Notes: a model not told the origin generated them from the sequence alone. A stretch of 64,000 nt of DNA from an uncultured Candidatus Bathyarchaeia archaeon (GCA_964618695.1 CAZUDX010000001.1:268886-332885); one strand, 5' to 3'. Shown: positions 3,701 to 64,000, counted from the stretch's first letter. Program-made: numbers and translations.

Positions 3701-4428
3701 TGGGGCACCTTTAGCTGGTCAATGGGCTTTTGTGGATGTTTTAATTGTTTTGAACATGCGAAATACCAGCCGCTAGACATAAAATGTGGCAGATTGTCGG
3801 CTAGTCGGCAGTCTAAAGTAGCTAAGAAGGTGTCACGCAAAAAGGGTAGAAACATTATGAAGTCTGAGTTTTGGATGAACAAAATCTGGAACCCTTTCTT
3901 GCCCAATAGCCTTTTCAATCGTCCGATAGTGAAGTTTGTTTTGTGTGCTTGACCCTGTCGTTGTTTTTTCTGCAAACCAATTCGAACAAACAACTTTCTG
4001 GAGAGTCTTTGCGGAGTCTCCGAAAACACTTCGTAAGGTCCCAGTCCATTAGGAACTGTAAGGAAAAGAACCCCACCACGTCGGATAGCCTTAGCGAGCT
4101 GATTGATGACGGTTTCTGGATTGTCAACATGCTCAAGCACTTCAGAACATATTATAACATCAAACTTTCTTTGTAGCTGGTCAATCTTTTCAGCCTCAAG
4201 AAGCATGAAAGAGGCGTTACTGTTTTTATTACTCTGTGACGCAAGTTGAATGCGATCTGGATTAATATCAATTCCCAAGACGTTGTGACCTAGTTTGGCT
4301 AATTCCAAAGCTACAGGTCCTTCACCACAACCAACATCAAGGATATCTAGAGCTCCTTTTTTTCTTGCCATAAATTCTATAGCAGTGAATATGGATCTTA
4401 GCCTCTTTACGTCAAGTGGTCTCTTCAA
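3697..4428 (-). CDS. Class I SAM-dependent methyltransferase
   Basis: 243-aa ORF with ILDVGCGEGP motif I, GIDINPD, and VIICSEVLEHVDNP (Methyltransf_11-like). Has 4-nt overlaps with both neighbouring genes. Confidence 0.8.
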   Translation of the reverse strand: MKRPLDVKRLRSIFTAIEFMARKKGALDILDVGCGEGPVALELAKLGHNVLGIDINPDRIQLASQSNKNSNASFMLLEAEKIDQLQRKFDVIICSEVLEHVDNPETVINQLAKAIRRGGVLFLTVPNGLGPYEVFSETPQRLSRKLFVRIGLQKKQRQGQAHKTNFTIGRLKRLLGKKGFQILFIQNSDFIMFLPFLRDTFLATLDCRLADNLPHFMSSGWYFACSKQLKHPQKPIDQLKVPQ

Positions 4429-7400
4429 TCTTGAACTTGCCCTTCCAAAATTCCTAAGTAATAAAGCTCAAGCGTCTCTTCAGTAGATCTCTGATAATAG
4501 TACAGTTTTAACTTCGCACCATTTTCGAGTAGTTCCGATGGGATTGCAATCAAGTTGTTACCGGTAGTTAAAACGCCCGTCACTATATCTCCTTTATCAG
4601 AGATTAATTCAAAAAGAATAGGTGATTGTAATGAGAGACTGTTAATGGAAATTGCCAGATTCTTCTCAGGGGGATTTCCAGTTATTGCAGGTATCACTCC
4701 TTCCACGCCAACAAGGTGCATTTTCAATTCGACTTGGTCTAGGTAGTAAGTGCATGAGCCGCCAGTGAAGCTTATTTCTACATAGTCGATCTTGCCCCAT
4801 GTGGGATTCCCAACACTTTTGAATGAGCTTAACGGAATTGTGAAATGTTTCCATCCAACAAAATCATCAGTTATTGAAGTGAGATACAAGTCTTCCCAAG
4901 TGCTCTCTTCCACGGTATGAAAACTTATCTGAATAGGATTGGTTGTGTTTGCACCATAAAGGTAAAAGCTTAATCCGCCGTAAGACCTCCAGTCTTGGGA
5001 TTCGCTATAACGATGTTTAAGTGCTACGCCCTCCTCCGCGTCAATGTACACTTTTAGAGAATTGGTTCCATGTTCTTTTATTGACTCCTCGTTGCTCAAG
5101 GTTATTTCGTCTTCTTGGTTAATCTTGTCGCCATACCAAAATGCGTCCTGATAGTCATCAGCAATCACGTTGAAGTTCTCCACTAGAGGACTTACACTTA
5201 TGCCTCCATCAAGACCGCTGACATTAGTATAATCATTTAAAGGAACCCAGCCATACTCAAAGGAAGCCAAATATTTGTAAGTCTGTTCAGCCTCGTCTTG
5301 CGTTATTATCGTATAAAGATTAAACTTTGAAAATTCTTTTGACGACAGTACATAAGGAGATCTGCTGAGTAAATCGATATTTAGTGCTGGGAGTTTTTCA
5401 CTAAGATCTTCAAAGAATTCATAGTATGTATGATTGGAGTTTGGGAACAACAAATAGCGTATGTTACGATCAATGAGACCGTTTTTTAAGTCTTCTACAC
5501 TGTCGCCATTAAGATTCTGCAAGTTGATCACTCCATAAACACTGGTCACCTCAATTACAGGGTGCTTAGTAAAGTACGATAAGTGATGAGCGTGACATGT
5601 AATTATCGTGTAATCATCTTGTAGCTCTTGATTGAAATAGGGTATAACCTCATCGAGATTGTTCTGCCAACCCTCAGGAAGGTAGTAAACATTTTCTTGA
5701 ACATTAATAACAGCGTTCAATGACACAGGCACCAATGAAAAAGAAAGCAGTCCTATGAAGATGAAAGGAAGAAACGAATGAGAGTGATGAAGTAGTTTCC
5801 CAAATATTCTACGAGTCGACTTAAGATTGGGTATAGGAAGTAGAAACAACACTACAAAGAAGAAGGCAAAAACTATCAGCATTTCAACACCAGCAACACC
5901 TAACGAGCGAAACAATCCATCATTTATGTGTGGAATGCCAGAAGCGCCAATGTTGAACTTAAACGCCCATAAATAAATAAGAGCTAAACAATCGAAGATT
6001 GCGAAGCGGGCTACTAACGAATGCATAGTGCCTGTAGCTTCAGCTATCTTTTTTATTCCCATTGCAATGAAAATTGCGAATAGTGGAGCGAAGTAATATA
6101 GTCTCCGCAATTCTGGTCCCTCATATTTGTTATAGAAGGCCCAAGACCAGAAAACAAGCAACATCAGAAAGAATGACAACAAAAGAAACGATTTTTCAAT
6201 ATTTCTCTTCTTGAAAAAATCATGGATAGAAGTAAATAAGCCTGTGAGACTCGGAATCACGAAAATAGCGCCTAGACTAATAGCACTGAATAAAACATCC
6301 CATCGCAGAATATCCAAAATAGTGGGCAGATTTCTTAGAGCCCCAACTTCTGCAGTTATTGAAGGCATCAAAGCCCCAGCTGCAATATAATTTTCGTCCA
6401 ATAAAATGAGAAGCGGGATAGGTATTCCACCAACTAGGAAATTTCTAGCACAATAAAAAATGAAAACGATTAAAGGAACACTAAAACAGATCAGGTGGCG
6501 CACGCTAATTATTTCTGACAAGGAATTAGCTGCCAACATTTTGTAAAATAATGGTAGAATTAGCACGAAGACCACAAGAACAGGTAATTGTCTAATTGCA
6601 TAACCAAACAATAGGTGAATGGGGAAATGAAACAGGTCCCAGATAAGAAAAACGTTGTAAGAGATAACAAAAATAATTGATAAGCCAATTGCTGAGACTA
6701 TGGTTAATTTTTTTGCACGTGAAAGAAGAAGCAAGAGGCCCAACGCGAATAGCGAAGGCAAGAGTATGACACTTACCTCTTTTACTAGCAGCAACAGGCT
6801 GATTGTTGATCCTAACATGAACCACCAAAAGTTGGCATTTTCATATTTTCGGTAAATTTTTAGCAGAACGAGTCCTGCTGAATAGAAAAGAAATGTGAAG
6901 GGCACATCCAAGTATAGACTATAGTTAGAGCTTACCGCTAAGACAATTGGCATCGAAATAAAAGAGATGGCTCCTATGATGGAAACTTTTGAATCCTGTG
7001 AAATTTCCTTCGATATGAGATAAACTACTATACTGGTTAGAACGATGTAAATAAATGGAAAAACTCTTACAGCAAGGTCAAAAGTAACTGCGCTGTTGCA
7101 AAGAAAATTGAACCACGCATACACTAACGGTATTCCTGGAGGGGTCGGCGACAACATATCGGTTTGCATGTAATAATTGTATTCTAGTCCAGCTGTTTTC
7201 ACTATAGATTCTGCTTTGGGCAGATAATAAAAAAACGCATCATATTCTGCGAAAATAGAGTGTGATGTTGTGAACGCAAATATGACTAGCAGCAAGAGTG
7301 CACATAAACTCAGCAGGATAAGGTCTTTTGTGCTGGGGCGAGGGAAAGGTTTGTTTTTTCTGACAAAGATGAAGTAAACGGAAGATGCTAAGATCACCAA

Positions 7401-7589
7401 GCTAATTATCGTAAAAATCAGGAAGAAATCCAATATTACGGAAGAAACAGCGCTAATTATGTAACTGAAACCTATGAGCAAGAAATTCCAAATGAGACTG
7501 CCAAACACTATAACTTCCAAGGATGATAATTTGATCCTGTACTTTGATGAAAGCCAGTACAGTAGTACTAACCCGGGAAGAAAAGCCAA
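4425..7589 (-). CDS. Large polytopic membrane protein, GT-C-like, with a C-terminal extracytoplasmic beta-rich (carbohydrate-binding-module-like) domain
   Basis: 1054-aa ORF. About 620 aa of repeated hydrophobic helices include an acidic loop (AEYDAFFYYLPKAE) early on, as in GT-C enzymes. The soluble C-terminal ~400 aa ends in a CBM/CIA30-like pattern (SLKVYIDAEEG...WRSYGGLSFYLYG...WKHFTIPLSSF...IDYVEISF). Confidence 0.55.
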   Translation of the reverse strand: MAFLPGLVLLYWLSSKYRIKLSSLEVIVFGSLIWNFLLIGFSYIISAVSSVILDFFLIFTIISLVILASSVYFIFVRKNKPFPRPSTKDLILLSLCALLLLVIFAFTTSHSIFAEYDAFFYYLPKAESIVKTAGLEYNYYMQTDMLSPTPPGIPLVYAWFNFLCNSAVTFDLAVRVFPFIYIVLTSIVVYLISKEISQDSKVSIIGAISFISMPIVLAVSSNYSLYLDVPFTFLFYSAGLVLLKIYRKYENANFWWFMLGSTISLLLLVKEVSVILLPSLFALGLLLLLSRAKKLTIVSAIGLSIIFVISYNVFLIWDLFHFPIHLLFGYAIRQLPVLVVFVLILPLFYKMLAANSLSEIISVRHLICFSVPLIVFIFYCARNFLVGGIPIPLLILLDENYIAAGALMPSITAEVGALRNLPTILDILRWDVLFSAISLGAIFVIPSLTGLFTSIHDFFKKRNIEKSFLLLSFFLMLLVFWSWAFYNKYEGPELRRLYYFAPLFAIFIAMGIKKIAEATGTMHSLVARFAIFDCLALIYLWAFKFNIGASGIPHINDGLFRSLGVAGVEMLIVFAFFFVVLFLLPIPNLKSTRRIFGKLLHHSHSFLPFIFIGLLSFSLVPVSLNAVINVQENVYYLPEGWQNNLDEVIPYFNQELQDDYTIITCHAHHLSYFTKHPVIEVTSVYGVINLQNLNGDSVEDLKNGLIDRNIRYLLFPNSNHTYYEFFEDLSEKLPALNIDLLSRSPYVLSSKEFSKFNLYTIITQDEAEQTYKYLASFEYGWVPLNDYTNVSGLDGGISVSPLVENFNVIADDYQDAFWYGDKINQEDEITLSNEESIKEHGTNSLKVYIDAEEGVALKHRYSESQDWRSYGGLSFYLYGANTTNPIQISFHTVEESTWEDLYLTSITDDFVGWKHFTIPLSSFKSVGNPTWGKIDYVEISFTGGSCTYYLDQVELKMHLVGVEGVIPAITGNPPEKNLAISINSLSLQSPILFELISDKGDIVTGVLTTGNNLIAIPSELLENGAKLKLYYYQRSTEETLELYYLGILEGQVQD

Positions 7590-21893: not shown

Positions 21894-24869
21894 GTGAAAA
21901 TGAATAAAAAAGTAGTTTTAACTGTTCTTATAGCATTTTTAGGGTCATTATGTATTTTCAGTTCACTGTTTGTTGTGTTCGCAAATGCGGTCCCGGAAGG
22001 CACTGAGGTTGAAGAAAATTACTTGTCAAACCAAAATTTTGCTAATTCGATGAGTGGGTATAATCAGCAAATTTTTCCATTGAGCGAAAACGGAAAGATT
22101 AAACTTTCTGGTGCGGTACCAAGCCCAGCAGAGACAGAAATTTTCTACGATGACGGAACTGTTGAACACGGCTGGTATTGGCTTACGGTTGGAAGTAAAT
22201 GGGCGGTTAGGTTCACACCGCCATTCTCCGGTGCGCTCTTAGAATGCCGCTTCTACATAGTTAGTAACCCAGCCACGGTCATAGTGCACGTTTATGACTC
22301 AGATAAAATTGATATAATCACACCGTTCTCTGTAACTCCCACATCCACTGGTTGGTTCACCGTGGATCTGTCCACATATGGGATCACCGTAAGCGAGGAG
22401 GATGACTTTTACATCGGTATAGAAACGACAGAAGTAGCTATGCCAAGTTTAGGAGCCGATCACGACGCCCCAGACTTCCGAAGCTGGAGGCATGGTGGAA
22501 CAACTTGGGACTTGGTTACTGACAGAGACTATATGATTAGGGCTACGATCGAGTCCGATATTGATCTTGTGATAACAAATCTCTATTTGGATCCTGCGGA
22601 CCCAGATGAGGGCGACCTTACAAATTTTAAAGCTAGCGTAGAAAATCAAGGCACTGGGGATGCAAACGACTTTGTCGTACAAATGTATCTAGACGACGAG
22701 CTTTATGTAGAGGGTACACATTCTCTAGCTGCGGGAGACAGCATCACCTACTTCCAACCATGGACGGCGACCCCTGGGAGCCATACTTTAAGATGTGTTA
22801 TTGACGCAACAGATGTAATCGACGAGACAGATGAAAATAACAACGAAATGACTATAGACTTCGGAGTGGGGGAATATCTAACTGTAAATTCTCCGTACGG
22901 CACACCGGGCGGCGAGGACTGGTACAACCATGGCGCAACCGCATATGCTACCTTAGACACTGGCACGGTGGATGAGGGAAATGGAATCCGGAGAATCTTC
23001 ACGCATTGGAGCGGAGACGCCTCTGGAACAAATTTTGCACAAAGCAATCCAATCACTATGGACGGACCAAAGACCGCAATAGCCAATTGGAAGACCCAAT
23101 ATTATCTGACGATGGTTGCAGATTCTGGAACAGTTAGTCCAATGAGTGGTTGGTACGACGCCGGGGCAACCGTTTCCATCAGCGCCACAGCCCCAACCGT
23201 CACTGGAGACGAACAATATGGTTGGGATGGATGGACTGGAACAGGCGCTGGAAGCTATAGCGGAACAAACAACCCAGCATCCATAACCATGAACGCGCCA
23301 ATAACACAAACAGCAACATGGAGACGCGAATACTACTTAACCGTAACTTCTGCCTATGGCACACCCTCACCAGAGAGCGGATGGGTTGAAGCTGGAACAC
23401 CCATCACCATATCATCAGGCTCACCAGCCTCTGGACCAGACGGCACCAGATACTTATGCACCGGATGGACGGGAACCGGAAGCGTCCCAGCCACTGGAAC
23501 AGCAGCATCCGCAACCTTCACAATGGAAGAACCCTCAAGCATAACATGGAACTGGAAGACCCAATACTATCTAACCATGGAAACGAGTTATGGATCCGTC
23601 AGTCCAACGAGTGGTTGGTACGACGCCGGGGCAACCGTTTCCATCAGCGCCACAGCCCCAGCTGCCACTGGAGATGAACGGTATGGTTGGGCTGGTTGGA
23701 CAGGAACAGGTACTGGAAGCACCAGCAGCACAAGTAACCCCGCCTCTGTAACAATGAACGGGCCAATAACACAGACAGCAACATGGAGACGCGAATACTA
23801 CTTAACCGTAACTTCTGCCTATGGCACACCCTCACCAGAGAGCGGATGGGTTGAAGCTGGAACACCCATCACCATATCATCAGGCTCACCAGCCTCTGGA
23901 CCAGACGGCACCAGATACTTATGCACCGGATGGACGGGAACCGGAAGCGTCCCAGCCACTGGAACAGCAGCATCTGCAACCTTCACAATGGATCAAACTT
24001 CCAGCATAACATGGAACTGGAATACTCAATACTATCTAACCATGGAAACGAATAATGGAACAGTCACACCAGAGAGTGGTTGGTACGATCCTGGGTCAAC
24101 CGTTGTAATTACCGCAACAGCACCAACAGCCACTCCACAGGAACAATATTATTGGCTTGGATGGACCGGAACAGGCTCTGGAAGCACCAGCAGCACAGAC
24201 AACCCAGCCTCCATAACCATGAACGCGCCAATAACACAAACAGCAGCATGGAGATACGAATACACACCTATTGAAACTTACATCCAGGATTTTGGTGTTT
24301 CTTCAAATTCGATTGCGAAGGGAGGAACAATCATTGTTTCAGGCTCTATTTCGCTCGCTCAAGAAGTAACTATTACCTTAACTTACACGATGCCAGACGG
24401 GACGAAATTTAACAGAACAACTACCGCATCTGACGGAACGTTCAGCCACAGCTACACAGCAGACATGGATGGAGAATGGAGCGTACAGGCCAGTTGGCCA
24501 GGAGACAGCAGCTACGCCGGCTGCGAAAGCGGAACTATGTCATTCAAAGTGAAATCGCCTGGCATATTGGATGATCCAGATATTTGGCAAGTTATCTTAG
24601 CAGTAGTGGGAATCGCCCTCTCTGTCGCCATCATTGCAGGTGCATGGTACACTACTCATAGAAAAAGGGGACACGTCAAAGAACTGCTAGACCAAATCGA
24701 CGACGCTTTCTTCCGCTTCAAAAGAAACACCCGAAGATGCGAAGCAGAGCTTTACAGATTGCGGGACATTGTTTTAGAAAGTTACAAAAGCGGAGCAATA
24801 ACAGAAGCAAGTTACAGCATCTTAAATTCAAAGATAGATGATTACCTCAGTAAACTTGTTGAGTCCTAA
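21894..24869 (+). CDS. Cell-surface protein: signal peptide, CARDB domain, six InlB-B-repeat-like beta domains, Ig-like domain, C-terminal TM anchor and a short coiled cytoplasmic tail
   Basis: 991-aa ORF with a GGGGAGG RBS. Signal peptide is MKMNKKVVLTVLIAFLGSLCIFSSLFVVFANA. The CARDB-like region is ITNLYLDP...ENQGTGDA...NNNE. Repeated units follow Y(Y)LT(V/M)...G(T/S)V(S/T)P.SGWY..G..V.I.A.A...Y.W.GWTGTG. The TM segment is VILAVVGIALSVAIIAGAWY. Confidence 0.85.
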   Translation: MKMNKKVVLTVLIAFLGSLCIFSSLFVVFANAVPEGTEVEENYLSNQNFANSMSGYNQQIFPLSENGKIKLSGAVPSPAETEIFYDDGTVEHGWYWLTVGSKWAVRFTPPFSGALLECRFYIVSNPATVIVHVYDSDKIDIITPFSVTPTSTGWFTVDLSTYGITVSEEDDFYIGIETTEVAMPSLGADHDAPDFRSWRHGGTTWDLVTDRDYMIRATIESDIDLVITNLYLDPADPDEGDLTNFKASVENQGTGDANDFVVQMYLDDELYVEGTHSLAAGDSITYFQPWTATPGSHTLRCVIDATDVIDETDENNNEMTIDFGVGEYLTVNSPYGTPGGEDWYNHGATAYATLDTGTVDEGNGIRRIFTHWSGDASGTNFAQSNPITMDGPKTAIANWKTQYYLTMVADSGTVSPMSGWYDAGATVSISATAPTVTGDEQYGWDGWTGTGAGSYSGTNNPASITMNAPITQTATWRREYYLTVTSAYGTPSPESGWVEAGTPITISSGSPASGPDGTRYLCTGWTGTGSVPATGTAASATFTMEEPSSITWNWKTQYYLTMETSYGSVSPTSGWYDAGATVSISATAPAATGDERYGWAGWTGTGTGSTSSTSNPASVTMNGPITQTATWRREYYLTVTSAYGTPSPESGWVEAGTPITISSGSPASGPDGTRYLCTGWTGTGSVPATGTAASATFTMDQTSSITWNWNTQYYLTMETNNGTVTPESGWYDPGSTVVITATAPTATPQEQYYWLGWTGTGSGSTSSTDNPASITMNAPITQTAAWRYEYTPIETYIQDFGVSSNSIAKGGTIIVSGSISLAQEVTITLTYTMPDGTKFNRTTTASDGTFSHSYTADMDGEWSVQASWPGDSSYAGCESGTMSFKVKSPGILDDPDIWQVILAVVGIALSVAIIAGAWYTTHRKRGHVKELLDQIDDAFFRFKRNTRRCEAELYRLRDIVLESYKSGAITEASYSILNSKIDDYLSKLVES
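23091..24263 (+). repeat. Tandem repeat, period 465 bp (155 aa, two beta-domains per unit), about 2.5 copies inside the surface-protein gene
   Basis: Unit starts at 23091, 23556 and 24021 (AAGACCCAAT / AATACTCAAT). About 210 bp (roughly 23317-23526 vs 23782-23991) are identical except for about one base. The ORF track shows identical antisense ORFs 465 bp apart. Confidence 0.9.
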
Positions 24870-52700: not shown

Positions 52701-53078
52701 TTATCTACCTGCTTGTGTTGCAATCAGCGTGACTCCCAATAGAATGAAGAAGACGCCTACCCAGCTGGTTAATCCTACTGTCTCCTTGAGGAAAATTTTT
52801 GAGAATATAGTCGTCCAGATATAGGATGTGGCGATTATCGGGTACAGTATGGAAAGCTGTTCCTTGTTTAGAGCATAAACGTAAAGCACAGTAGAAACGA
52901 AATACACTAGGACTCCGAGGATTAGATGATAATTTGTTAACAGCAGTTTGATGTCGAACTGGAGGTTGTCTGCTCCTCGTTTAAATTCGAGTTGCCCAAT
53001 GCTTCCGACAAAAGCAGACAACGCGGTTAATAAGATAATTTTCCAATCCATCCTTAACCCCTCAACACTAAACCCCAT
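52701..53078 (-). CDS. Small 4-TM DMT/EamA-type protein (ArnE/ArnF-like putative flippase subunit)
   Basis: 125-aa ORF with four hydrophobic helices and an EamA half-domain pattern. An alternative start is MDWKI at 53051. It sits between the large surface-protein gene and the GT2 gene, 3 nt upstream of the GT2 start. Confidence 0.6.
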   Translation of the reverse strand: MGFSVEGLRMDWKIILLTALSAFVGSIGQLEFKRGADNLQFDIKLLLTNYHLILGVLVYFVSTVLYVYALNKEQLSILYPIIATSYIWTTIFSKIFLKETVGLTSWVGVFFILLGVTLIATQAGR

Positions 53079-56000
53079 TCAAGTCCGTAAGTTCAGTAGA
53101 TAAAAGCCTTGCGTTTGAAAGCATGTTTGAAGAATCGGATTCACGTTTAGGTTGTTTCCTCTTTTTACTCAACACAACAAACGTTACGGGAAACACAACT
53201 GCTAACACGATTACCACATACAATATGCTGTTTGAGAAATGAGCGTTTGACACGGTTTTTGTGGCTTGCCCAAAATTTGGAGACTCCACCTCGACAAAGA
53301 AACTCTGAAGTGGACCCCAGTCAGTTACCTCACACGCGTATATTCCAGATTCAAGTTCGCTACATGCTTCGCCATTTACTGAAACAGCGGCGTTGACAAC
53401 CGGATTCTGGGTGTAATTATAGTTCGCATAGACCTTTATGCTCGTCACCCCCAACGCTCCTGTCTCAAACTCCAGCTGAGATATCTCTATTTTGTCCCAG
53501 ATTATTTCTGTTTTTTCAGTTTGGTCGAGAATCACTGTTAGACCAAAAGCTTCGTCATAAACAGATGACACTTCGTATACTTGTGGACCGGGAATGTTTG
53601 AAGTGACAACGTATTCCCATCTTGAGTTTCGTGATGACCAAGTCATCGGTTCGCCATTTAGGTAAAGCATCCCTTGGGAATCATCAAAACGTACAGCGTC
53701 ATACTCGTATTCAGCATTTACCCATACAAGCTGTGACGAACCCGTCTGAACAATTTCATCGAAAATGATGGAATCTGTGACCTTTACCCTGTCCCAAATG
53801 ATGGTGGGATCGTTAACGGATTTGACGTATTCGGTCAAAGTATTGTATGTGACGCCTGTAACGTTCCAAACAACTCTCCCAACAGTATCATAGCTGGTGT
53901 CGAAACTGATCCACCCTGTCTCGTTTGTAGAATATTTGATGCCGTCAACATCAACGCTTGCTCCCACAACATCCGCACCATCACTCATCCACGACACGTG
54001 GAAGCCAACGGTCTGGACGCTACCGACGTCTGCCCTCGTATCACTGACGAATATATTGTCTATCTCGATTGGCGCGAAGCCTACCATAAGCTCAACCGTT
54101 TCCCCGGTTGGAACCGAAAAATCGGCAGATAAAACACTCGTTGAAGCATCAAAATCCCATGTTGAAACCTCTTCGCCATTGACCTTGAAGTAGTAAGGTG
54201 TTGATTCGCCAGTCTGCATCTGAATTGAGCCTTCTTGTCCAGCGTTTCCGTTTGCAGAAATCTTTAGAAGCTTTCGGGACGAGTTCCATGAAAATTCGGT
54301 TAAAGGAACGGTTGACGAGACCACAGTGAATTCAGTGGTGTTCTCCCAACTGACGGTGATGTCTGAGTTAGAAACAACTGTTAGAACCTTATTCTCCGAG
54401 TCATAAGCCTGTGTTAAATCATAAGGTGTTCCAAGGATATATCGTGGCCGCTCAAAATCTGCACAATAAATCCTAGTCGTATTTGTCGCTTCTTCAAGAG
54501 CCATGAGACCAACTGTCAAGCGCTGGCCAACAAAGAGCGGAGCCCTAGTTAAATGGGTGTCCGAGTATATCACCTGAGGATCACCATCATTTTCCAGTAA
54601 TACGAATATTTTGTCTTCTTTGGGTTGCAAAGTTACGTTTAGAAGTATCATGGGACCTTTATGGACGCCGTAGAACTCGTTGTTGACATAATCAAAGACA
54701 ATATACTCTTTATCGGCTGTTAAGTCTGCCTCCAACGGTCTGACGTAATATGTGAAGGTTTGAGGAGTTGTGGAATTGTCGTGCATAAGGTAGACAATTC
54801 TGTCAGCCTGTCCATGACTTAACCAATACTCATTTTCAGGATATAGTATGTACGACATAGGTCTCACATAATAGGCGCAGAGGAATTGGATGAAGTCAGT
54901 TAAAACATCCGTTAAAACACCATTCGGCAGAGAATATGGGTTCCGAGTGTTGACAACGTAAGTGTAGCCTGCACCCTTCTTGTTTTCAACGATAAAGGCG
55001 TTAGGCCAGCTTTGTTTTCCGTTAACCCAAGCTAACACGCGGGTACTTTCGCTAGACATTATGTCGTATTTGAATTTCCAGAACCAAGAACCAGTTTCTC
55101 CCAAGTCAGAGTAATGGTAGGTTTTTCCATTCCATGGATACCAGAAAGTGTCTTGTGTAAACTCAATATTGTGCAAAAAAGTATCCGCGGTTATATCTGA
55201 ATTACTGTTAGCATGGATTGGAACGTGAAGACCAAATAGTGAAACCAAACTTTTAGTCCACGCTTGTGGGTCTTCGAGGTTATCCACGTTTTCGTTGGTG
55301 TGGGTAAACGTTAGTAGCGAGAAAAAAATTCCACCGTTTTCTACGTAATTTTCAATGTTGTTGGCGATTGCGTCGCTCATGTGGCTCCAGCCCAAGCCAA
55401 TAATGACCTTATACTGACTCAGCACTTCCGGCGGAGCGTAAATGGAGATAATATCCACCATCCCAAAGGGCAACCCTGTAAATTCTTTCGCAATTAGGGC
55501 ACTGCCAATCTGCCAGTTGTCGCCAATTCCGGGGAAGAAGATGTTCAAAAGCCTGTAGTCGAAATCTCCGTACCTGTCGGACTGCAACCATAACCCCCAA
55601 TCGGGACCGCGACTACTCCAACCGCTCTGCCCAATCATAACCGCAATAGGGGAACGATAATTTGGCTGATGATACTCTATACTGTCTACGTTTTGCAGGA
55701 AAGCATAGAATCGTTGAATCACTTTTCCATATTCGGTTAGCTTTCCGTCTGGTCCAAGAATGATGTATTTGGTTGGCCAATCGCGGTTAAGTGTTCCGAA
55801 GAAGTTGCCTTGTTCGAAGAAGAAGTATTTTGCTCCATAGAACCATCCTTCGTAGAGTGCCCTTTCGACGTCGTTTGGGGTGAAAGCTGGAGGTTTTGTC
55901 CATTCTCTCCATGTGTCTACCCAGAGTCCCCATGCAGATATGTTGTAGCTGTTGACCATTCCTCGGGCTTGACCTATCATCAATTCTACGTTTGGGGCGT

Positions 56001-56739
56001 TGAAGACCTTGCTGACGAGAACATCGCAATAAGACGTATTCGCTGCGACATGGCTGATAACGTTTTCCTGAAGGAATATCCTAGCGCCGTTGTCTTTGAA
56101 TTCTGGCAACTGCATAGTAGAAGTGAGATTTTCAATTATTGTCCGTTCTGCTTCAAGTCGGGTATTGATTGTTCCAGTGGAGTTGTCTGCCCATATATTA
56201 ATGTCAACCTGTTTTCCAGTTATCTCTTGAACTATGATGCCTAAGAGACGGGGATATTTTGATTTCCAAGTTGCAAACTGTTCAGGAGATATTCTAACGT
56301 GATGGTCTGAAGCGTTGTAAGTTTCAAAAATGGTGTAAAGACCCAAATCGTTTGCTTCTTTGATTGCTTCTTCTACTAACGTTAGATTCCATGCTTGATC
56401 TAATGGGTGTAGTATGACCATGTTGCCGAGTTGAAGGTCTTTAACTTTTTTTATGCTGTCCAAAATCACCTGCTGCTGGCTTTCGAGGATTAAAATTCCC
56501 ATGAAAAATTCTGGTTCCTCTTCATCTGTTTCCTGAGCTAGGACTTGAGAAGTGGCGGATAAAAAGAAGACGGTGAGAAGAAGCGCTGTTAGAAAGAAGA
56601 ACAACAGCTTTTGCCTGTTTATTCCGATTGGTTTCAAGTTGGTTTCTCCGTCTTCGGATAGGTTATGTTGGTCCTTCAGAACATATGAAGAAGTGAAACA
56701 AAAATATAAGGGAACAGCACGGCTCTGAATCTTTCTCAC
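53068..56739 (-). CDS. Very large surface protein: signal peptide, GH-like TIM-barrel-type domain, multiple beta-sandwich domains, C-terminal TM anchor
   Basis: 1223-aa ORF. A probable TTG start at 56637 gives the signal peptide (M)KPIGINRQKLLFFFLTALLLTVFFLSATSQVLAQE. The C-terminal anchor ILYVVIVLAVVFPVTFVVL is followed by KKRK. Many N-x-S/T sequons are visible. Confidence 0.75.
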   Translation of the reverse strand: MRKIQSRAVPLYFCFTSSYVLKDQHNLSEDGETNLKPIGINRQKLLFFFLTALLLTVFFLSATSQVLAQETDEEEPEFFMGILILESQQQVILDSIKKVKDLQLGNMVILHPLDQAWNLTLVEEAIKEANDLGLYTIFETYNASDHHVRISPEQFATWKSKYPRLLGIIVQEITGKQVDINIWADNSTGTINTRLEAERTIIENLTSTMQLPEFKDNGARIFLQENVISHVAANTSYCDVLVSKVFNAPNVELMIGQARGMVNSYNISAWGLWVDTWREWTKPPAFTPNDVERALYEGWFYGAKYFFFEQGNFFGTLNRDWPTKYIILGPDGKLTEYGKVIQRFYAFLQNVDSIEYHQPNYRSPIAVMIGQSGWSSRGPDWGLWLQSDRYGDFDYRLLNIFFPGIGDNWQIGSALIAKEFTGLPFGMVDIISIYAPPEVLSQYKVIIGLGWSHMSDAIANNIENYVENGGIFFSLLTFTHTNENVDNLEDPQAWTKSLVSLFGLHVPIHANSNSDITADTFLHNIEFTQDTFWYPWNGKTYHYSDLGETGSWFWKFKYDIMSSESTRVLAWVNGKQSWPNAFIVENKKGAGYTYVVNTRNPYSLPNGVLTDVLTDFIQFLCAYYVRPMSYILYPENEYWLSHGQADRIVYLMHDNSTTPQTFTYYVRPLEADLTADKEYIVFDYVNNEFYGVHKGPMILLNVTLQPKEDKIFVLLENDGDPQVIYSDTHLTRAPLFVGQRLTVGLMALEEATNTTRIYCADFERPRYILGTPYDLTQAYDSENKVLTVVSNSDITVSWENTTEFTVVSSTVPLTEFSWNSSRKLLKISANGNAGQEGSIQMQTGESTPYYFKVNGEEVSTWDFDASTSVLSADFSVPTGETVELMVGFAPIEIDNIFVSDTRADVGSVQTVGFHVSWMSDGADVVGASVDVDGIKYSTNETGWISFDTSYDTVGRVVWNVTGVTYNTLTEYVKSVNDPTIIWDRVKVTDSIIFDEIVQTGSSQLVWVNAEYEYDAVRFDDSQGMLYLNGEPMTWSSRNSRWEYVVTSNIPGPQVYEVSSVYDEAFGLTVILDQTEKTEIIWDKIEISQLEFETGALGVTSIKVYANYNYTQNPVVNAAVSVNGEACSELESGIYACEVTDWGPLQSFFVEVESPNFGQATKTVSNAHFSNSILYVVIVLAVVFPVTFVVLSKKRKQPKRESDSSNMLSNARLLSTELTDLNGV

Positions 56740-57550: not shown

Positions 57551-57672
57551 GGGCAGTTCCTACAAAATATGACGTATGTCATGTTTATATACGTTTCAGT
57601 TCTTGGCATGCTAAAAACCAATTCTTTGTCCAACAAAAAGCCAAGCAAACAAAGGTTTGAAATAACTGGACA

Positions 57673-58224
57673 TTATTTTGACAGAATTAGGTCGATAAGC
57701 TCCTTTTGGTCAACTTCTGCTCTGGTTCTCCAGTCCAAGTATAGCATGTTGTTTTCGTCTTCAGCCAAGTAGCCGGAACGAATGTAACGGTTCATGTTCA
57801 TGTCAACCCTCCACCCTGGAAGCTTGATGCGAAGCAGGTCCTCCACCTCTTCGCGGGGAGCCTTCCCCTTCTTGGAGATAAGATAGGTGATAGCTGTCGC
57901 CAAACCTGCAATGTCATCTATGCGCCAGCCCATCATCTTAGCATCATCCGCAGGAAAACCACCTCTAAGAGTAACGAAGAACCTAGCCCTGTTCAACTCT
58001 TCAAGGGTCGGCTCTCCAGCAGGCTTTTCCCCCTCAAAGACGGTCCTCAGTTGTAAGTCCAGCTTTTCCAGATGGTTATCCAACACTTTGAGGATTTTAG
58101 GGTAATCAGAACCCAGCTTATTTTTCAGTTCCCATCCTTTGACGCCCGGTTTTCTGTGTCGTTTGTAAAACAACAGTTGAGCGGCCCTCTTGATTTTCCG
58201 AGCATAGTAAGCTTTTCTCTTCAT
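57673..58224 (-). CDS. Kite-like (ScpB/MAGE-like) tandem winged-helix protein
   Basis: I prefer the start MKRKAYY (ATG at 58224), which forms an ATGA overlap with the upstream stop. The track ORF extends to 58254. Two wHTH-like halves are visible (GVKGWELKNKLG..., and IAGLATAITYLISKKGKAPREEVEDLL). Third gene of the SMC-like operon. Confidence 0.5.
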   Translation of the reverse strand: MKRKAYYARKIKRAAQLLFYKRHRKPGVKGWELKNKLGSDYPKILKVLDNHLEKLDLQLRTVFEGEKPAGEPTLEELNRARFFVTLRGGFPADDAKMMGWRIDDIAGLATAITYLISKKGKAPREEVEDLLRIKLPGWRVDMNMNRYIRSGYLAEDENNMLYLDWRTRAEVDQKELIDLILSK

Positions 58225-59033
58225 TCTTGTTTCGCCTCTTTCCATCTTTTCCATTCTTCGGAGCTTACGGAGATTGGGACAGAAACCGTCTGCTTATCAG
58301 CTAGGTTAGACCGCGGTTTTTTGAAGGGTTTGATGAAAACCTCTTCTTCTAAGGGATGCAACTCTAATGTTGCGTAACCGTATGTTACTAAGAAACTGGT
58401 CATGTAAGCTCTGTCTATTGTTTCAGGGTAGGTTTCGGCGCCAACAAAGTCCCAATACAATATTTTTTCTGCGTCGCCCACCTTCTGTTGCAATTCCTTC
58501 CAGAAAACTTCTAACGTTTCCAAGAAGGTTTTTTCGGCTAAGATTCTTAGTTTAATAAGTTCTTCCCGTGAGGTAGCTCCAGTTTCCACCATTAGAGAAC
58601 CGTCTTTTTGCCATCTCTCGCTTATGGGAAGCAGGCTTTGCCAGTATTTCATGGCTTCAGTTAGGCTGGGAATGGAAATCTGTTCCAATTCGATGATGGG
58701 ATTCCAAGCCTGCATAAAAAGTTCGGCGAGCTCCTCTTTGTCCAACCTCTGAATCTTTTCTTCGAGGAGGAAGGGATCAGTGTAGAGGGAGGTTGACCGA
58801 TGTTTTACCCAGTCTCCTTGATTTTTAATCACAGAGGCGAGGCATTGAACAGCTTCTGCATCCAGAACCAGTTCTTCCGCCGATTCCCACTCAGGAAAAT
58901 GTTTTTGAAGCGTTGCAATGATGTCGTCCACGTCCAATGCGAATGGGTCTACACCCTTCTCTTCAACGGATTTGCATAATTCTATGACGCGTTGAAGGCG
59001 TTCACTGCTCAGCTTCTTCTCTTTTGTGGACAA
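58221..59033 (-). CDS. Kleisin-like protein (ScpA-like)
   Basis: 270-aa ORF whose TTG start directly follows the SMC-like stop codon. The C-terminal RAYMTSFLVTYGYATLELHPLEEEVFIKP resembles the ScpA C-terminal winged helix. The N-terminus is helical and acidic. Confidence 0.55.
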   Translation of the reverse strand: MSTKEKKLSSERLQRVIELCKSVEEKGVDPFALDVDDIIATLQKHFPEWESAEELVLDAEAVQCLASVIKNQGDWVKHRSTSLYTDPFLLEEKIQRLDKEELAELFMQAWNPIIELEQISIPSLTEAMKYWQSLLPISERWQKDGSLMVETGATSREELIKLRILAEKTFLETLEVFWKELQQKVGDAEKILYWDFVGAETYPETIDRAYMTSFLVTYGYATLELHPLEEEVFIKPFKKPRSNLADKQTVSVPISVSSEEWKRWKEAKQE

Positions 59034-61079
59034 CTATGTTACCTCTTTGATGAGTGAAGCTCCTTCCACATTCTGAACCGTAATTAAATGAACGTCTTTA
59101 TCGGTGAATGTAAGCTGACTTGGAGTGATAGCCAAGTATTGTGTGTTTAAACCTGTTACTGAAGAAACAAGTAGGTTTGCGATGATTTCCCTGTTTTTTG
59201 GGTCCATGTGAACGTCGTATTCGTCAACGGCTCGGAAAGGAGAATGAACGTGCTGTTGCAGCGCAAGGAGGAAGGTTACTGTGGCGGTGCTTCTTTCTCC
59301 TCCACTTTGGGTGTAGGAGTTAAGGGGAACTGGTTTTCCTCCTTTGAAGCCCACAAATATTTCGAGACCAGCCTCTTCGATGTCTTGTTCATTTATTACT
59401 TTGACTTCGCCAACTGCGTAGGCTTCGGAAAGGATTTTTTGGTATTTGGAGTTAACCTTGTCTAGAAGGTTGTGGATGACGGTTCGCCAAGCATCCATTC
59501 TTGCTTTCACTTCTTCTAGGGCTTTCTCGCGGTTTTCTGCAACTAAACGGGCTTTTTCTTTGAGTTCCAGATAAAGTTGGGAATATTTTTCGTACATCCG
59601 TTCGATGTCCTCGGAAACGTCTGCCAACGCAGCTAGGTGCCCATCAGTTACTCGAAGTTCATCCAGAATGTCCATGGTGTTTTTCATCGGCACAACTCTT
59701 GAACCTATCTCTTCAGCCTTCTTGACATATTCATCAAGCTCGACGAGTGCCAGTTGAAGCTCCTTCTCTAACTTCTTCACGGCTTTGGCGGATTGCTCCT
59801 TCTGATATTGTATTAGCGCTAGGTTGATCTTGCGGTCTAGAATGTTGTTGGTAGTGGTTTCGATGTTAAGATTGAGGGAATCTGACTTGCTTTTAATGTC
59901 TGAAATTTTGAGGTCCAATTTTGCGAGTTGTTCTTTGCAGTCTTCAGCAGATTCTTTCAAACTTGAGTTTCGTAGATTGAAGCGTTGGGTCCAAGCGTCT
60001 TCTAGAGTATCGTAGCTTGCTTTGATTTCGTCAAGTTGTGGTCTGAGGTCTATGGGGTTTGTTTTTTCGCGGAGAATCGTTTCAAGAGAACTGATTTTTT
60101 CTAGGACATTTTCCATCTCTTTGCGGTGGTTTTCGGTCCAAGATTCTGTTTCTTTCAAGGCTTGATCGGCTTTTGAGACAGTTAATTCAAGTTTTGCCCT
60201 TTCACGTTCCACGGCAAGTCTGTCTTCGAATAGGTTTTTCCATGCGGTCTTTGAGTGTTCCAGTTTGTTCTGAAGCACGTCTAGTTGTCCTGTGATGGTT
60301 TCAGTCTCGCTTTCGATTTTGGAGATTATGTTTTGTTTCTCTTGGTGCTGTTCCTTTAGTTTGTTAACAATTTTTTCTCTTTTCAGAACTTCAGCCCATG
60401 CTAGTTCTCGTTCAAGGAACCGTCTTTTTATTTTCAGCTGTTTTTTCTGTTGGTAACGGTCGTATTGTTGGCGCCAGTAAGAGAGGGTTTGCTGGGCTGA
60501 TTCTAGGAGTTTTTCGACTGAATCTCCTTGGCTTAGGATGCGGCTTAGCTTCTTTTGGGCTTTCAAAACGTTTTTTCTGTAGGATTCGAAGCCGACTGCT
60601 GCCTCTACCATTCTCAGTTTTTCTTGAGATGAAAGCACCGTAAACTGTTCAACCATGTTTTGGTGCATGATGATGAGCATGTTGTCTGGGTCAACTTCAA
60701 ATTTGGAGAGAAGCCTGCTGACGTCTGCCCTGTTTGCTGCCCTGTTTTCGAGTTCGAACCAGTATTTTCCATCGCGCCTCAGACTTCTGGTCAAAAAAAT
60801 CTGGTCTTTTCTGATTTTTTTGACGGGTCGTCGTCCGTTTCTTGGGGAGTTGTCTAGGACTAGGGTGACTCGGGCTTCGTCTTTTCCGTATCTGATTAGG
60901 TCGCTTAGTTTTTTGGAGCGTTCAGTGTAAGATTGTGCCAGTGCAACGGAGATTCCTATTAGTATGGTTGATTTGCCTGCGCCGTTTGGTCCGCAGACTA
61001 CGTTGACGCCCTTTTTGAAGGGTATCCTAGCGTATTCGTAGGACATGAAGTTTTCCAAGATAACTTCTCGAATCAGCAT
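59034..61079 (-). CDS. Short-armed SMC-family ATPase, Smc5/6-like (archaeal SMC-related protein)
   Basis: 681-aa ORF with N-terminal LENFMSYEY and Walker A GPNGAGKST. IMHQNMVEQF...SSQEKLRMVEAAVG resembles the SMC QGxxxxF/ER motif. About 400 aa of coiled coil lack an evident hinge. The C-terminal signature is SGGERS and Walker B is FRAVDEYDVHMD, resembling eukaryotic Smc6 FRCLDEFDVFMD. Confidence 0.75.
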   Translation of the reverse strand: MLIREVILENFMSYEYARIPFKKGVNVVCGPNGAGKSTILIGISVALAQSYTERSKKLSDLIRYGKDEARVTLVLDNSPRNGRRPVKKIRKDQIFLTRSLRRDGKYWFELENRAANRADVSRLLSKFEVDPDNMLIIMHQNMVEQFTVLSSQEKLRMVEAAVGFESYRKNVLKAQKKLSRILSQGDSVEKLLESAQQTLSYWRQQYDRYQQKKQLKIKRRFLERELAWAEVLKREKIVNKLKEQHQEKQNIISKIESETETITGQLDVLQNKLEHSKTAWKNLFEDRLAVERERAKLELTVSKADQALKETESWTENHRKEMENVLEKISSLETILREKTNPIDLRPQLDEIKASYDTLEDAWTQRFNLRNSSLKESAEDCKEQLAKLDLKISDIKSKSDSLNLNIETTTNNILDRKINLALIQYQKEQSAKAVKKLEKELQLALVELDEYVKKAEEIGSRVVPMKNTMDILDELRVTDGHLAALADVSEDIERMYEKYSQLYLELKEKARLVAENREKALEEVKARMDAWRTVIHNLLDKVNSKYQKILSEAYAVGEVKVINEQDIEEAGLEIFVGFKGGKPVPLNSYTQSGGERSTATVTFLLALQQHVHSPFRAVDEYDVHMDPKNREIIANLLVSSVTGLNTQYLAITPSQLTFTDKDVHLITVQNVEGASLIKEVT

Positions 61080-61290: not shown

Positions 61291-61608
61291 GTGTCCATTC
61301 CGATGGAATTCAAAAGAAAAGTTGCTGACCTCTATTTAGAGAAGAAAACGAAGTTGGATGAACTTGACCCCGAATCTTTGGAGTCTTTTGCCTCTGAAAT
61401 ACTAAACATGATCCAAACAGAGAAGGACAATATTCTTGCGAAACACGATTTAGAAGTATTGGAGTCCAGCATGAAAATCCTCAAAAACCAAGCCAACAAA
61501 CTCAAAGGCTTTGAACCAGACACCGACGCCTACGATTTCACCCTAAACGACTGCAACAACCTCCTGAACTCCACCAAAAAATGGCTAAAACTAGAAGGAC
61601 TCCTCTAA
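61291..61608 (+). CDS. Hypothetical helical protein
   Basis: 105-aa ORF with a GTG start after GGAGG. No motif recognised. Confidence 0.45.
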   Translation: MSIPMEFKRKVADLYLEKKTKLDELDPESLESFASEILNMIQTEKDNILAKHDLEVLESSMKILKNQANKLKGFEPDTDAYDFTLNDCNNLLNSTKKWLKLEGLL

Positions 61609-61899: not shown

Positions 61900-62334
61900 T
61901 CAGAGGTTTTCACGAATTTTCTTCGCTATCTCGTCCAAGTTTTTTCTTTCTGGTGTTTTGAGCCCGTGATGGCCTATCATGGCTCCTATAGTTTTTGATA
62001 TGGGGTCTCCTTTGTGTCTTGGTATAACGTGGACGTGAAAGTGCATCACTGACTGGCCAGCAGCTCTACCGTTTAGTTGTAGTATGCTGATTCCCTCGGC
62101 GCCAACAGTCTCTTTCACAGCAACACTGACTCTCTTCACCACCGAGAATACATCAGCTAAGACTTTCTCAGGAATCTCACAGATGTTCTCCCAATGTTCA
62201 CGGGGAACAACCAAAGTGTGACCAGTGTTGGTGGGATACAAGTCCATGAACGCTAGGACAGAAGCGTCTTCGTAGACAATGCTTGCCGTGGCTTTGCCGG
62301 AAGCTATCTTGCAGAAAGGACAATTGACATTCAT
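61900..62334 (-). CDS. HIT-family (histidine triad) nucleotide hydrolase/transferase
   Basis: 144-aa ORF with CPFCKI, DLYPTNTGHTLVVPREH, and the histidine triad HFHVHVIP. Confidence 0.9.
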   Translation of the reverse strand: MNVNCPFCKIASGKATASIVYEDASVLAFMDLYPTNTGHTLVVPREHWENICEIPEKVLADVFSVVKRVSVAVKETVGAEGISILQLNGRAAGQSVMHFHVHVIPRHKGDPISKTIGAMIGHHGLKTPERKNLDEIAKKIRENL

Positions 62335-62464
62335 TGTTTCCTTTCACTTCTTGTAATCAGCCTTGTTTTTGCAAGAGTTAAATGTTTATGGTTTCTTCTG
62401 ACGGTTTGCTGAGGGGTTTCTTCAAAAAGCTTAAAATACAATTTGTGGTTCATGTCTGTTTGGC

Positions 62465-62569
62465 GCCGAGGTAGCTCAGATTGGGAGAGCACCCGACTCG
62501 ACAATATTGTTGTTGAGGGTGAAGCTGAAGACCGGGTTGTCGCCAGTTCAAGTCCGGCCCTCGGCACCA
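62465..62569 (+). tRNA. tRNA-Phe (anticodon GAA) with a 28-nt intron at a non-canonical anticodon-loop position and an encoded CCA
   Basis: Folded by hand. Acceptor GCCGAGG/CCTCGGC; D arm GCTC-AGATTGGGA-GAGC; anticodon stem CCCGA/CCGGG; loop CT|intron (about 62499-62526)|GAAGA; variable TTGTC; T arm GCCAG-TTCAAGT-CCGGC; A73, then CCA. Two A-C mismatches (31-39 and 52-62) lower confidence. Confidence 0.65.
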
Positions 62570-62648
62570 CAATGTTATTTTGGAATAAACCGGCGACACT
62601 TTATTATTTGCGTTTTCGGAAAAGTTTAGCATCTTGGATTTCGAAGAT

Positions 62649-64000
<1,352 letters not shown>

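Follow-up and report, generated by a model that had tools for sequence, protein, structure and literature searches.

Organization of the locus

We describe a compact three-gene unit in a stretch of 64,000 nucleotides, referred to below as the window, from an uncultured Candidatus Bathyarchaeia archaeon (GCA_964618695.1, CAZUDX010000001.1:268886-332885). The unit lies at positions 57673-61079, where three open reading frames (ORFs) are packed on the minus strand and encode, in this order, an ATPase from the family known as structural maintenance of chromosomes (SMC), with 681 amino acids (aa), a kleisin of 270 aa and a kite-like protein of 183 aa (Table 1). An earlier reading of this DNA, made from the sequence by itself (the sequence-only reading), had proposed these ORFs as well as the manner in which their stop and start codons meet. 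All three ORFs were found on the minus strand, and both junctions, TAG followed by TTG and ATGA, are present in the sequence and recur in most related loci.

At the junction between the SMC and kleisin genes (ACATAGTTG) the kleisin start is the codon next to the SMC stop, and the Shine-Dalgarno-like sequence GAGGT precedes the TTG start in the window. At the junction between the kleisin and kite genes (CAAGAATGAAG, or AAGAATGAAG in a longer reading) the stop and start codons overlap in ATGA if the 183-aa start is taken. An alternative upstream ATG would extend the kite gene to 57673-58254 and the protein to 193 aa; public gene calls record the 183-aa form and not the 193-aa form. The abutting and overlapping stop and start codons of the three-gene unit are compatible with coupled translation.

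Table 1. Features of the three-gene unit, in window coordinates
Feature	Position	Strand	Basis or remark
SMC-family ATP-binding cassette (ABC) ATPase, compact, hingeless, of Smc5/6-related archaeal type	59034..61079	-	681-aa ORF, ATG start
Kleisin	58221..59033	-	270-aa ORF, TTG start immediately 3' of the SMC stop codon
Kite-like protein	57673..58224	-	183 aa, two winged-helix domains (AlphaFold2 model), ATGA overlap with the kleisin stop
SMC stop/kleisin start junction, TAG then TTG	59031..59036	-	Read as ...ACA TAG TTG TCC
Kleisin stop/kite start overlap, ATGA	58221..58224	-	Direct sequence reading
Walker A, GPNGAGKST, SMC residues 30-38	60966..60992	-	Translation; invariant or nearly so in an alignment
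Apex turn of the arm hairpin, KTNPIDL, SMC residues 339-345	60045..60065	-	AlphaFold2; hinge position in other SMCs
ABC signature, SGGERS, SMC residues 592-597, preceded by Q591	59289..59306	-	QSGGER matches SMC5-type sequences
Walker B and D-loop, FRAVDEYDVHMD, SMC residues 615-626	59202..59237	-	DE[FY]DV[HF]MD common with Smc6
ITP, SMC residues 651-653, at the H-loop/switch-histidine position	59121..59129	-	Alignment with SMC types
C-terminal winged-helix domain of Nse4 type, kleisin residues 200-268	58230..58436	-	Pfam Nse4_C
Two T5 runs, possible archaeal oligo-T terminator	57613..57639	-	35-60 nucleotides past the kite stop; inferred

Lineage of the SMC head

The ATPase motif set of the SMC protein is intact, and Pfam SMC_N matches residues 3-664 with 108.7 bits. 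The head carries the motifs ILENFMSY (NFMSY), QSGGERS and PFRAVDEYDVHMD, for which the corresponding sequences are SLKNFMCH (NFMCH) and DEFDVFMD in Smc6 and QSGGERA and PFR.VDEINQGMD in Smc5, whereas canonical SMCs differ at these sites (NFKSF, LSGGEKAL and LDEVDAALD, the last of the form DEV[DE]AxLD). The context of the H-loop, QYLAITP, is of the same kind. The pattern [ILVFM]TP occupies this position in 52 of 53 family members, in an Asgard SMC (P0458) and in 23 of the 25 SMC5/6-type representatives that are eukaryote-like; the residues there are ITH, VSH or ISH in canonical SMCs and SHD in Rad50.

Sequence searches gave a similar picture. With the full-length protein, the best matches among PDB sequences were, in descending order, yeast Smc5, human SMC5, human SMC6 and Pyrococcus Smc. 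With the head only, phmmer scored yeast Smc5 at 127.7 bits, human SMC5 at 97.9, yeast Smc6 at 88.1 and Pyrococcus Smc at 85.6, followed by Smc3 and Smc2 (about 56 bits) and Rad50 (about 39 bits). When 1.84 billion cluster representatives were searched exhaustively with HMMER, 130 proteins fell below E = 1e-30. The protein's own family comes first in this search (35-71% identity), and the named matches that follow are the 835-aa Asgard SMC of Ca. Freyarchaeum, SMC5 from an insect, Smc6 from a yeast and a protein of lichen-forming fungi, a ranking that rests on the part of the representatives for which source names were looked up.

The head domains were also compared in a neighbour-joining tree computed from simple distances over 317 columns, to which five canonical SMCs and two archaeal Rad50s were added from annotated records. 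The split that unites the family, the Asgard protein and the eukaryotic SMC5/6-type sequences and sets them apart from canonical SMC and Rad50 was recovered in 174 of 200 bootstraps. The sequence-only reading had described the head motifs as Smc5/6-like and had suggested a head-domain phylogeny as a check. The PDB ranking, the named representatives, the motifs and the TP at the H-loop all agree with that description, and the tree, though rough, likewise groups the head with Smc5/6 and apart from ordinary SMC and Rad50. Every comparison that was run supports the view that neither canonical Smc nor Rad50 is as near to the head as Smc5/6 is.

The kleisin and the kite-like protein

Within the 270-aa protein the Pfam family Nse4_C matches the C-terminal region with E 0.0015 and 19.2 bits. 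The kleisins are 50-75% identical across Bathyarchaeia, and when 27 diverse family members were scanned against Pfam, Nse4_C matched 24 of them (best E 2e-5) and the ScpA and Rad21 families matched none. A profile search of PDB with the kleisin returned human EID3/NSMCE4B as its sole match, in the same C-terminal region and at a weak E of 0.57; another kleisin profile returned nothing from PDB. The N-terminal and middle parts of the protein received no assignment in these searches. Matches to PPR/TPR repeats in a single-sequence PDB search were judged spurious and this identity was rejected. The sequence comparisons support the second protein as a kleisin of the Nse4 type. The proposal of a ScpA-like C-terminal winged helix therefore stands as far as the kleisin winged helix is concerned and falls with respect to its type, since Nse4_C matches 24 of the 27 members and ScpA none.

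[quoted passage not shown] When this model was compared with PDB structures by Foldseek, the top matches were 7dg2_A (the Nse1-Nse3-Nse4 complex), 5hvq_D (MAGE-G1/NSE1), 2wa0 (MAGEA4) and 7dg2_C, and then MukE, with no ScpB entry in the top 50. In Pfam scans of 26 members of the kite family, one member matched MAGE at E 0.19, and the 183-aa protein itself has no RING-type or other zinc-finger Pfam match. The predicted fold moderately supports the third protein as a kite of the Nse1/Nse3 type. A resemblance to a tandem winged-helix kite had been noted, and the model bears out the two winged-helix units; kite similarity at the sequence level did not emerge.

Conservation of the unit in Bathyarchaeia

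Protein searches returned thousands of homologues for each of the three proteins, with identities of 57-100%, and identical or nearly identical proteins occur in Candidatus Bathyarchaeum and other metagenome-assembled genomes of Bathyarchaeia. A genome collection was scanned with one genome per species and 80 loci were returned, every one of them from Bathyarchaeia, with SMC identities of 57-89%. The order SMC-kleisin-kite is retained in 71-74 of these species-level loci. The spacing between the SMC and kleisin genes is 0 or -1 nucleotides in most of 74 loci, and that between the kleisin and kite genes is -4 nucleotides in most of 71. Of 74 kleisin starts, 72 have a Shine-Dalgarno-like tetramer upstream, and of 71 kite starts, 60 do. 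Given the thousands of homologues and the maintenance of gene order and junctions across Bathyarchaeia, the three ORFs are genuine genes rather than chance ORFs.

The genes that flank the unit in the window, namely a molybdopterin oxidoreductase, a 1223-aa protein with no Pfam match and a 105-aa ORF, are found again in no more than 11-13 of the 80 loci, and the conserved unit consequently consists of exactly three genes. Its neighbours comprise the molybdopterin oxidoreductase, a surface protein and a HIT hydrolase, and there is no nuclease or effector gene in the unit. Some loci depart from the common arrangement. One locus (L022) lacks the kite and has a ferredoxin-like gene after the kleisin, and in two others an insertion separates the SMC and kleisin genes, i.e., a PaREP1-family gene at L033:8047-10581 and a 542-aa ORF with no Pfam match at L038:2103-3928. 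The 105-aa ORF (61291-61608, plus strand) is divergent, lies upstream of the SMC gene and has no Pfam match; of the 80 related loci, 12 have a homologue of it close to the SMC operon.

Identity of the complex

We assign the unit, with a probability of about 0.8, to an archaeal SMC5/6-related complex in which an SMC ATPase, a kleisin of the Nse4 type and a kite of the Nse1/Nse3 type are encoded as one tightly packed unit. The strength of the identification decreases from the SMC protein to the kleisin and from the kleisin to the kite.

Several observations weigh against this assignment. The margin in head identity is modest (27-34% to SMC5/6-type proteins versus 25-27% to canonical SMC), and in the head-only search yeast Smc6 is barely ahead of Pyrococcus Smc (88 versus 86 bits). 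The tree is a crude neighbour-joining tree whose canonical SMCs number five, with a single archaeal one among them, and whose eukaryotic sequences were picked as best matches to the query. The head in the AlphaFold2 model is unreliable (pLDDT below 50, with a shallow alignment). The Nse4_C score of the window's kleisin (19.2 bits) is under the Pfam cut-off of 26 bits. The Foldseek matches of the kite have low TM-scores (about 0.3-0.36; E about 5e-4 to 5e-3) on a model of pLDDT 75, and neither sequence and profile searches against PDB nor the Pfam scans of the 26 members link the protein to any kite family. Finally, three of the 80 loci (L021, L029 and L036) carry the SMC gene with no adjoining kleisin or kite.

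Relation to published complexes

Archaeal SMC proteins have been divided into canonical and "SMC5/6-related" types, the latter found for the most part in TACK lineages, Bathyarchaeota among them; of 80 carriers, 44 have a canonical SMC as well (Yoshinaga & Inagaki 2021, PMC8665677). Operons that combine an SMC5/6-related SMC, an Nse4-related kleisin and an Nse1/3-related kite have been described by van Hooff et al. (bioRxiv 10.1101/2024.01.07.573240). Supplementary Table 3 of the same work lists such a set for Bathyarchaeota archaeon E29_bin60 (SOJC01000029.1_1/_2/_3, of which SOJC01000029.1_3 is classed as Nse1,3-related) next to a canonical SMC-kleisin-ScpB set in the same genome (SOJC01000109.1_2/_3/_4), and most of its Bathyarchaeia rows also have a ScpB-like kite (10.1101/2024.01.07.573240). 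The contig SOJC01000029.1 is also one of our 80 loci (L045), with an SMC protein of 680 aa that is 59% identical to the window's, a kleisin of 272 aa and a kite of 184 aa, joined by junctions of 0 and -4 nucleotides as in the window.

The window's operon is thus a Bathyarchaeia orthologue of the published archaeal SMC5/6-related three-gene type, and its kind is already known. The operon type, its affinity to Smc5/6 and, for the E29_bin60 genome, its coexistence with a canonical set have all been published. Neither Yoshinaga & Inagaki nor van Hooff et al. discuss the hinge, the protein length or the arm length of these SMCs, and hinge-less SMCs, when looked for by text search, turned up only in an oceanic actinobacterial group. 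The sequence-only reading had presented the locus as a holocomplex with short arms of a kind not known to be well characterised; given the published Bathyarchaeota orthologue the operon type cannot count as undescribed, and what survives of the claim is the short hingeless architecture, which those works do not discuss.

Compared with the archaeal SMC5/6-related complex, the window's unit agrees in its three subunits and in their order, and differs in no respect of kind. It shares with the eukaryotic Smc5/6-Nse4-Nse1/Nse3 complex the motifs NFM, QSGGER, DE[FY]DV.MD and ITP, the Nse4-type C-terminal winged helix and, as predicted, the tandem winged-helix fold of the kite. It differs from the eukaryotic complex in having one SMC gene, whose product presumably forms a homodimer in place of the Smc5/Smc6 pair, in having no hinge, in the distance between the two head halves (about 350 aa versus about 690-720 in the SMC5/6-type representatives), and in having a single small kite with no RING and neither Nse2 nor Nse5/6 in the unit. 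With canonical Smc-ScpA-ScpB it shares the general ABC head and the logic of an SMC-kleisin-kite operon, whereas canonical Smc proteins are about 1170-1190 aa long, have a hinge, a histidine in the H-loop and a different context around the signature and Walker B, and the window's unit matches neither ScpA nor ScpB.

The MukBEF and Wadjet JetABC(D) systems likewise combine an SMC protein with a kleisin and a tandem winged-helix kite, and MukE is among the fold matches of the kite. These systems are bacterial, have another gene order and much longer SMC proteins in which the hinge is small; Wadjet also includes a nuclease. ASRP/ClsN/Sph, Rad50 and RecN resemble the window's protein as hingeless ATPases of the SMC superfamily with short or moderate coiled coils, but their heads are of another type and the window's SMC scores below their family cut-offs. 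We know of no kleisin or kite partners for any of them. ASRPs carry a zinc-hook motif (PMC9389158), and both ASRP and Rad50 proteins pair by means of such a hook.

Arms and the missing hinge

About 350 residues separate the two halves of the head, and they contain three prolines, four glycines and no CxxC motif; the only cysteines of the protein are C29 and C381. The AlphaFold2 model, which we used for the secondary structure of the arms only, predicts helices at residues 151-338, 346-458, 468-484 and 491-552 (pLDDT of the arms 76-95), interrupted by a non-helical segment at 339-345. From residue 132 to residue 463 there is no proline other than P342 and P347. As shown by this model, the arm would be an antiparallel hairpin with about 170 residues in each strand and a turn of seven residues in place of a hinge. 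Its length is estimated at roughly 25 nm; for the arm of B. subtilis Smc PMC5526789 gives 49 nm. The absence of a hinge had been noticed in the sequence-only reading, and the composition of the sequence and the predicted hairpin concur with it. The coiled coil had been put there at about 400 aa, and although the arms are indeed short, the distance measured between the head halves is about 350 aa.

The SMC orthologues of Bathyarchaeia range from 639 to 682 aa. In an alignment of 79 of them, column conservation is 0.72-0.93 in the heads and in the head-proximal neck and arms and 0.32-0.62 in the distal arm and apex. The apex itself is the least conserved region (0.32-0.36), the most prone to insertions and deletions and the site of the length differences. 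Because it is poorly conserved and holds the insertions and deletions, a conserved dimerisation element at the tip seems unlikely.

Architectures in the wider family

Most of the close representatives found in the search are compact proteins of 532-685 aa, one of them from Conexivisphaerales, and four are long (P0424, P0379, P0385 and P0388). P0424, a metagenomic protein of 982 aa whose head is 47% identical to the window's SMC, nests among the compact forms in the neighbour-joining tree. Its middle contains a region of about 170 aa rich in glycine and proline that reads like a globular hinge, with no match to Pfam SMC_hinge. The other three (1016-1047 aa) have long helical arms with a single CxxC motif (EKPQIRCDKCGSLL) near the arm centre, which resembles the zinc hook of Rad50 or ASRP. 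In P0379 and P0385, which their source names place in Bathyarchaeota, the motif is "PQI[RK]CDKCGS". Together with a further protein encoded at L081, the long CxxC relatives span 1016-1058 aa and their heads are 51-56% identical to the window's SMC. They fall under the ASRP and Rad50 cut-offs, the best ASRP score among the family members tested being 107 bits. The compact forms have no cysteine pair, and their apex sequences vary freely among the family representatives.

One locus of the long CxxC form was recovered, at L081:4843-8019 on the metagenome contig Ga0164321_10000024. No kleisin or kite hidden Markov model matches downstream of it; a gamma-glutamyltranspeptidase and unrelated genes are found there instead. 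The gamma-glutamyltranspeptidase of this contig (L081:8248-9924, plus strand) is present as two abutting ORFs that match Pfam profile positions 2-188 and 192-512, which may reflect either a frameshift, an in-frame stop or a natural split.

The Asgard protein P0458 has similar head motifs, including VTP, and retains a hinge, with Pfam SMC_hinge at residues 341-452. The hinge begins at residue 341, whereas the turn of the window's protein occupies residues 339-345, so that the N-terminal arm is about as long as the window's. Since P0458 keeps an SMC_hinge on a similar N-terminal arm, the loss of the hinge looks like a derived trait within the archaeal lineage.

Taken together, these comparisons lead us to propose, tentatively and with slightly less than even confidence, that an SMC protein of the Smc5/6 lineage, partnered by a kleisin and a kite, works naturally with no hinge on arms of half length, that this compact form is the commonest in a broad family of Thermoproteota, of which Bathyarchaeia and Conexivisphaerales are the members known by name, and that the arm tips of the family take three forms, i.e., 1) a hinge (P0424), 2) a CxxC hook (P0379, P0385 and P0388) and 3) a plain hairpin. 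No description of a hingeless form partnered by a kleisin and a kite was found in the literature searched, the coverage of which was partial. If the proposal is true, the module of head, kleisin and kite would carry the core function alone and the hinge would be a swappable accessory, and a natural minimal holocomplex of the Smc5/6 type would exist for structural work.

Proposed mode of action and alternative explanations

By analogy with better-known complexes, two SMC subunits would engage through their ATP-bound heads, one kleisin would span from one head's neck to the other's cap, and a kite dimer would sit on the kleisin. DNA would be held in the kleisin compartment, clamped onto or beneath the engaged heads, as Smc5/6, MukBEF and Smc-ScpAB hold it in their DNA-clamped state. 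As the arms end in neither a hinge nor a conserved apex, the SMC subunits are unlikely to enclose a large lumen, and the complex may act mainly through its head module. Its role is most likely that of a second, housekeeping system for DNA maintenance or repair beside canonical Smc-ScpA-ScpB, and probably not one in defence, given a distribution like that of core genes and the lack of an effector.

The action of the complex could also be pictured with the hinge function replaced rather than lost: the tips of the hairpins would pair apex to apex in the manner of RecN or the Rad50 hook, and a small ring would entrap DNA. The CxxC of the long relatives shows that pairing through the apex is used in the family, and the apex is well conserved within the group at the level of Bathyarchaeum. 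Over the 79 Bathyarchaeia orthologues, however, it is the region of lowest conservation and most insertions and deletions, and the compact forms combine the lack of a cysteine pair with apex sequences that differ freely. We therefore regard apex pairing as unlikely.

A role as an anti-phage or anti-plasmid defence module, like Lamassu LmuB/LmuC or Wadjet JetABC, would account for the weak PADLOC matches of the ATPase (mad3 at 86 bits, LmuB at 59 over the whole profile, AriA, and JetC at 42.8) and would have a parallel in eukaryotic Smc5/6, which restricts viral DNA according to PMC9458440. The SMC scores far exceed these PADLOC scores, the kleisin and the kite have no PADLOC match, the unit contains no nuclease or effector such as LmuA or JetD, and the genes are syntenic in most sampled Bathyarchaeia species at 57-89% identity, which is the pattern of core genes and not of an island. 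A defence module is accordingly highly improbable.

Still less probable is a degenerate or truncated canonical Smc-ScpA-ScpB set in place of a separate lineage of the Smc5/6 type. The best NCBIfam match of the SMC protein is indeed the archaeal SMC family TIGR02169, and the relative P0385 scores Pyrococcus Smc about as high as Smc5 (108.9 versus 101.5 bits). The TIGR02169 match, at 167 bits, is nevertheless far under the cut-off of 729, as is that to the canonical SMC family TIGR02168 (146 bits versus 567); the unit has no ScpA or ScpB match, the H-loop has TP and not His, the tree separates the family from canonical SMC in 174 of 200 bootstraps, and the genome E29_bin60 carries the orthologous operon plus a separate canonical SMC-kleisin-ScpB cluster.

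That the protein is a member of ASRP/ClsN/Sph or Rad50/arcadin-4 with two unrelated small neighbours is hardly credible: although it shares with ASRPs a length of about 600-700 aa and the lack of a hinge and has weak matches to ASRP (NF045487, 54.7 bits versus a cut-off of 300), Rad50 (at most 64 versus 700 or more) and Rkd4 (56.8 versus 860), these scores are far under the cut-offs, the window's SMC has no CxxC, there is no Mre11 or nuclease neighbour, the head tree has Rad50 as its outgroup, and conservation extends jointly to the two small genes and their coupled junctions. The NCBIfam match to RecN is likewise far under its cut-off, and we rejected ASRP, Rad50, arcadin-4 and RecN as identities on account of these scores, and Lamassu and Wadjet as identities supported by weak PADLOC matches of the ATPase only.

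Significance

The assignment to an archaeal SMC5/6-related complex concerns a kind of operon that already figures in the published argument that eukaryotic Smc5/6 derives from a second archaeal SMC complex, and the present instance adds little to it. What appears worth following is how compact and hingeless the architecture is, and how much the arm tips vary within the family. The hinge is usually seen as an essential site of SMC dimerisation and DNA interaction, and here, to judge from the sequences, a conserved and evidently functional complex of the Smc5/6 type appears to do without it. Relatives with a hinge, a CxxC hook or a plain hairpin within one family form a natural comparison set for the roles of the hinge and of arm length, and a complex as small as this one (681 + 270 + 183 aa) should suit reconstitution and cryo-electron microscopy.

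Other features of the window

The G+C content of the window is about 42%, and it is raised (0.50) at 22-24 kb. The stretch 62001-64000 is the only one that reaches 54.6% G+C, as against about 42% elsewhere; it contains a catalase ORF (63063-63980, minus strand) that runs off the end of the window and that may be a horizontally acquired gene. None of the 80 related loci showed a catalase homologue beside the operon. Three large predicted surface or secreted proteins are encoded at 53068-56739 (minus strand, 1223 aa, with no Pfam match), 21894-24869 (plus strand, 991 aa, with CARDB and InlB B-repeat domains) and 4425-7589 (minus strand, 1054 aa, with CBM_11). An unusually long tRNA gene of 96-102 nucleotides lies at 62465-62569 (plus strand), for which ARAGORN gives the doubtful call Asn with anticodon ATT, and which probably contains an archaeal intron.

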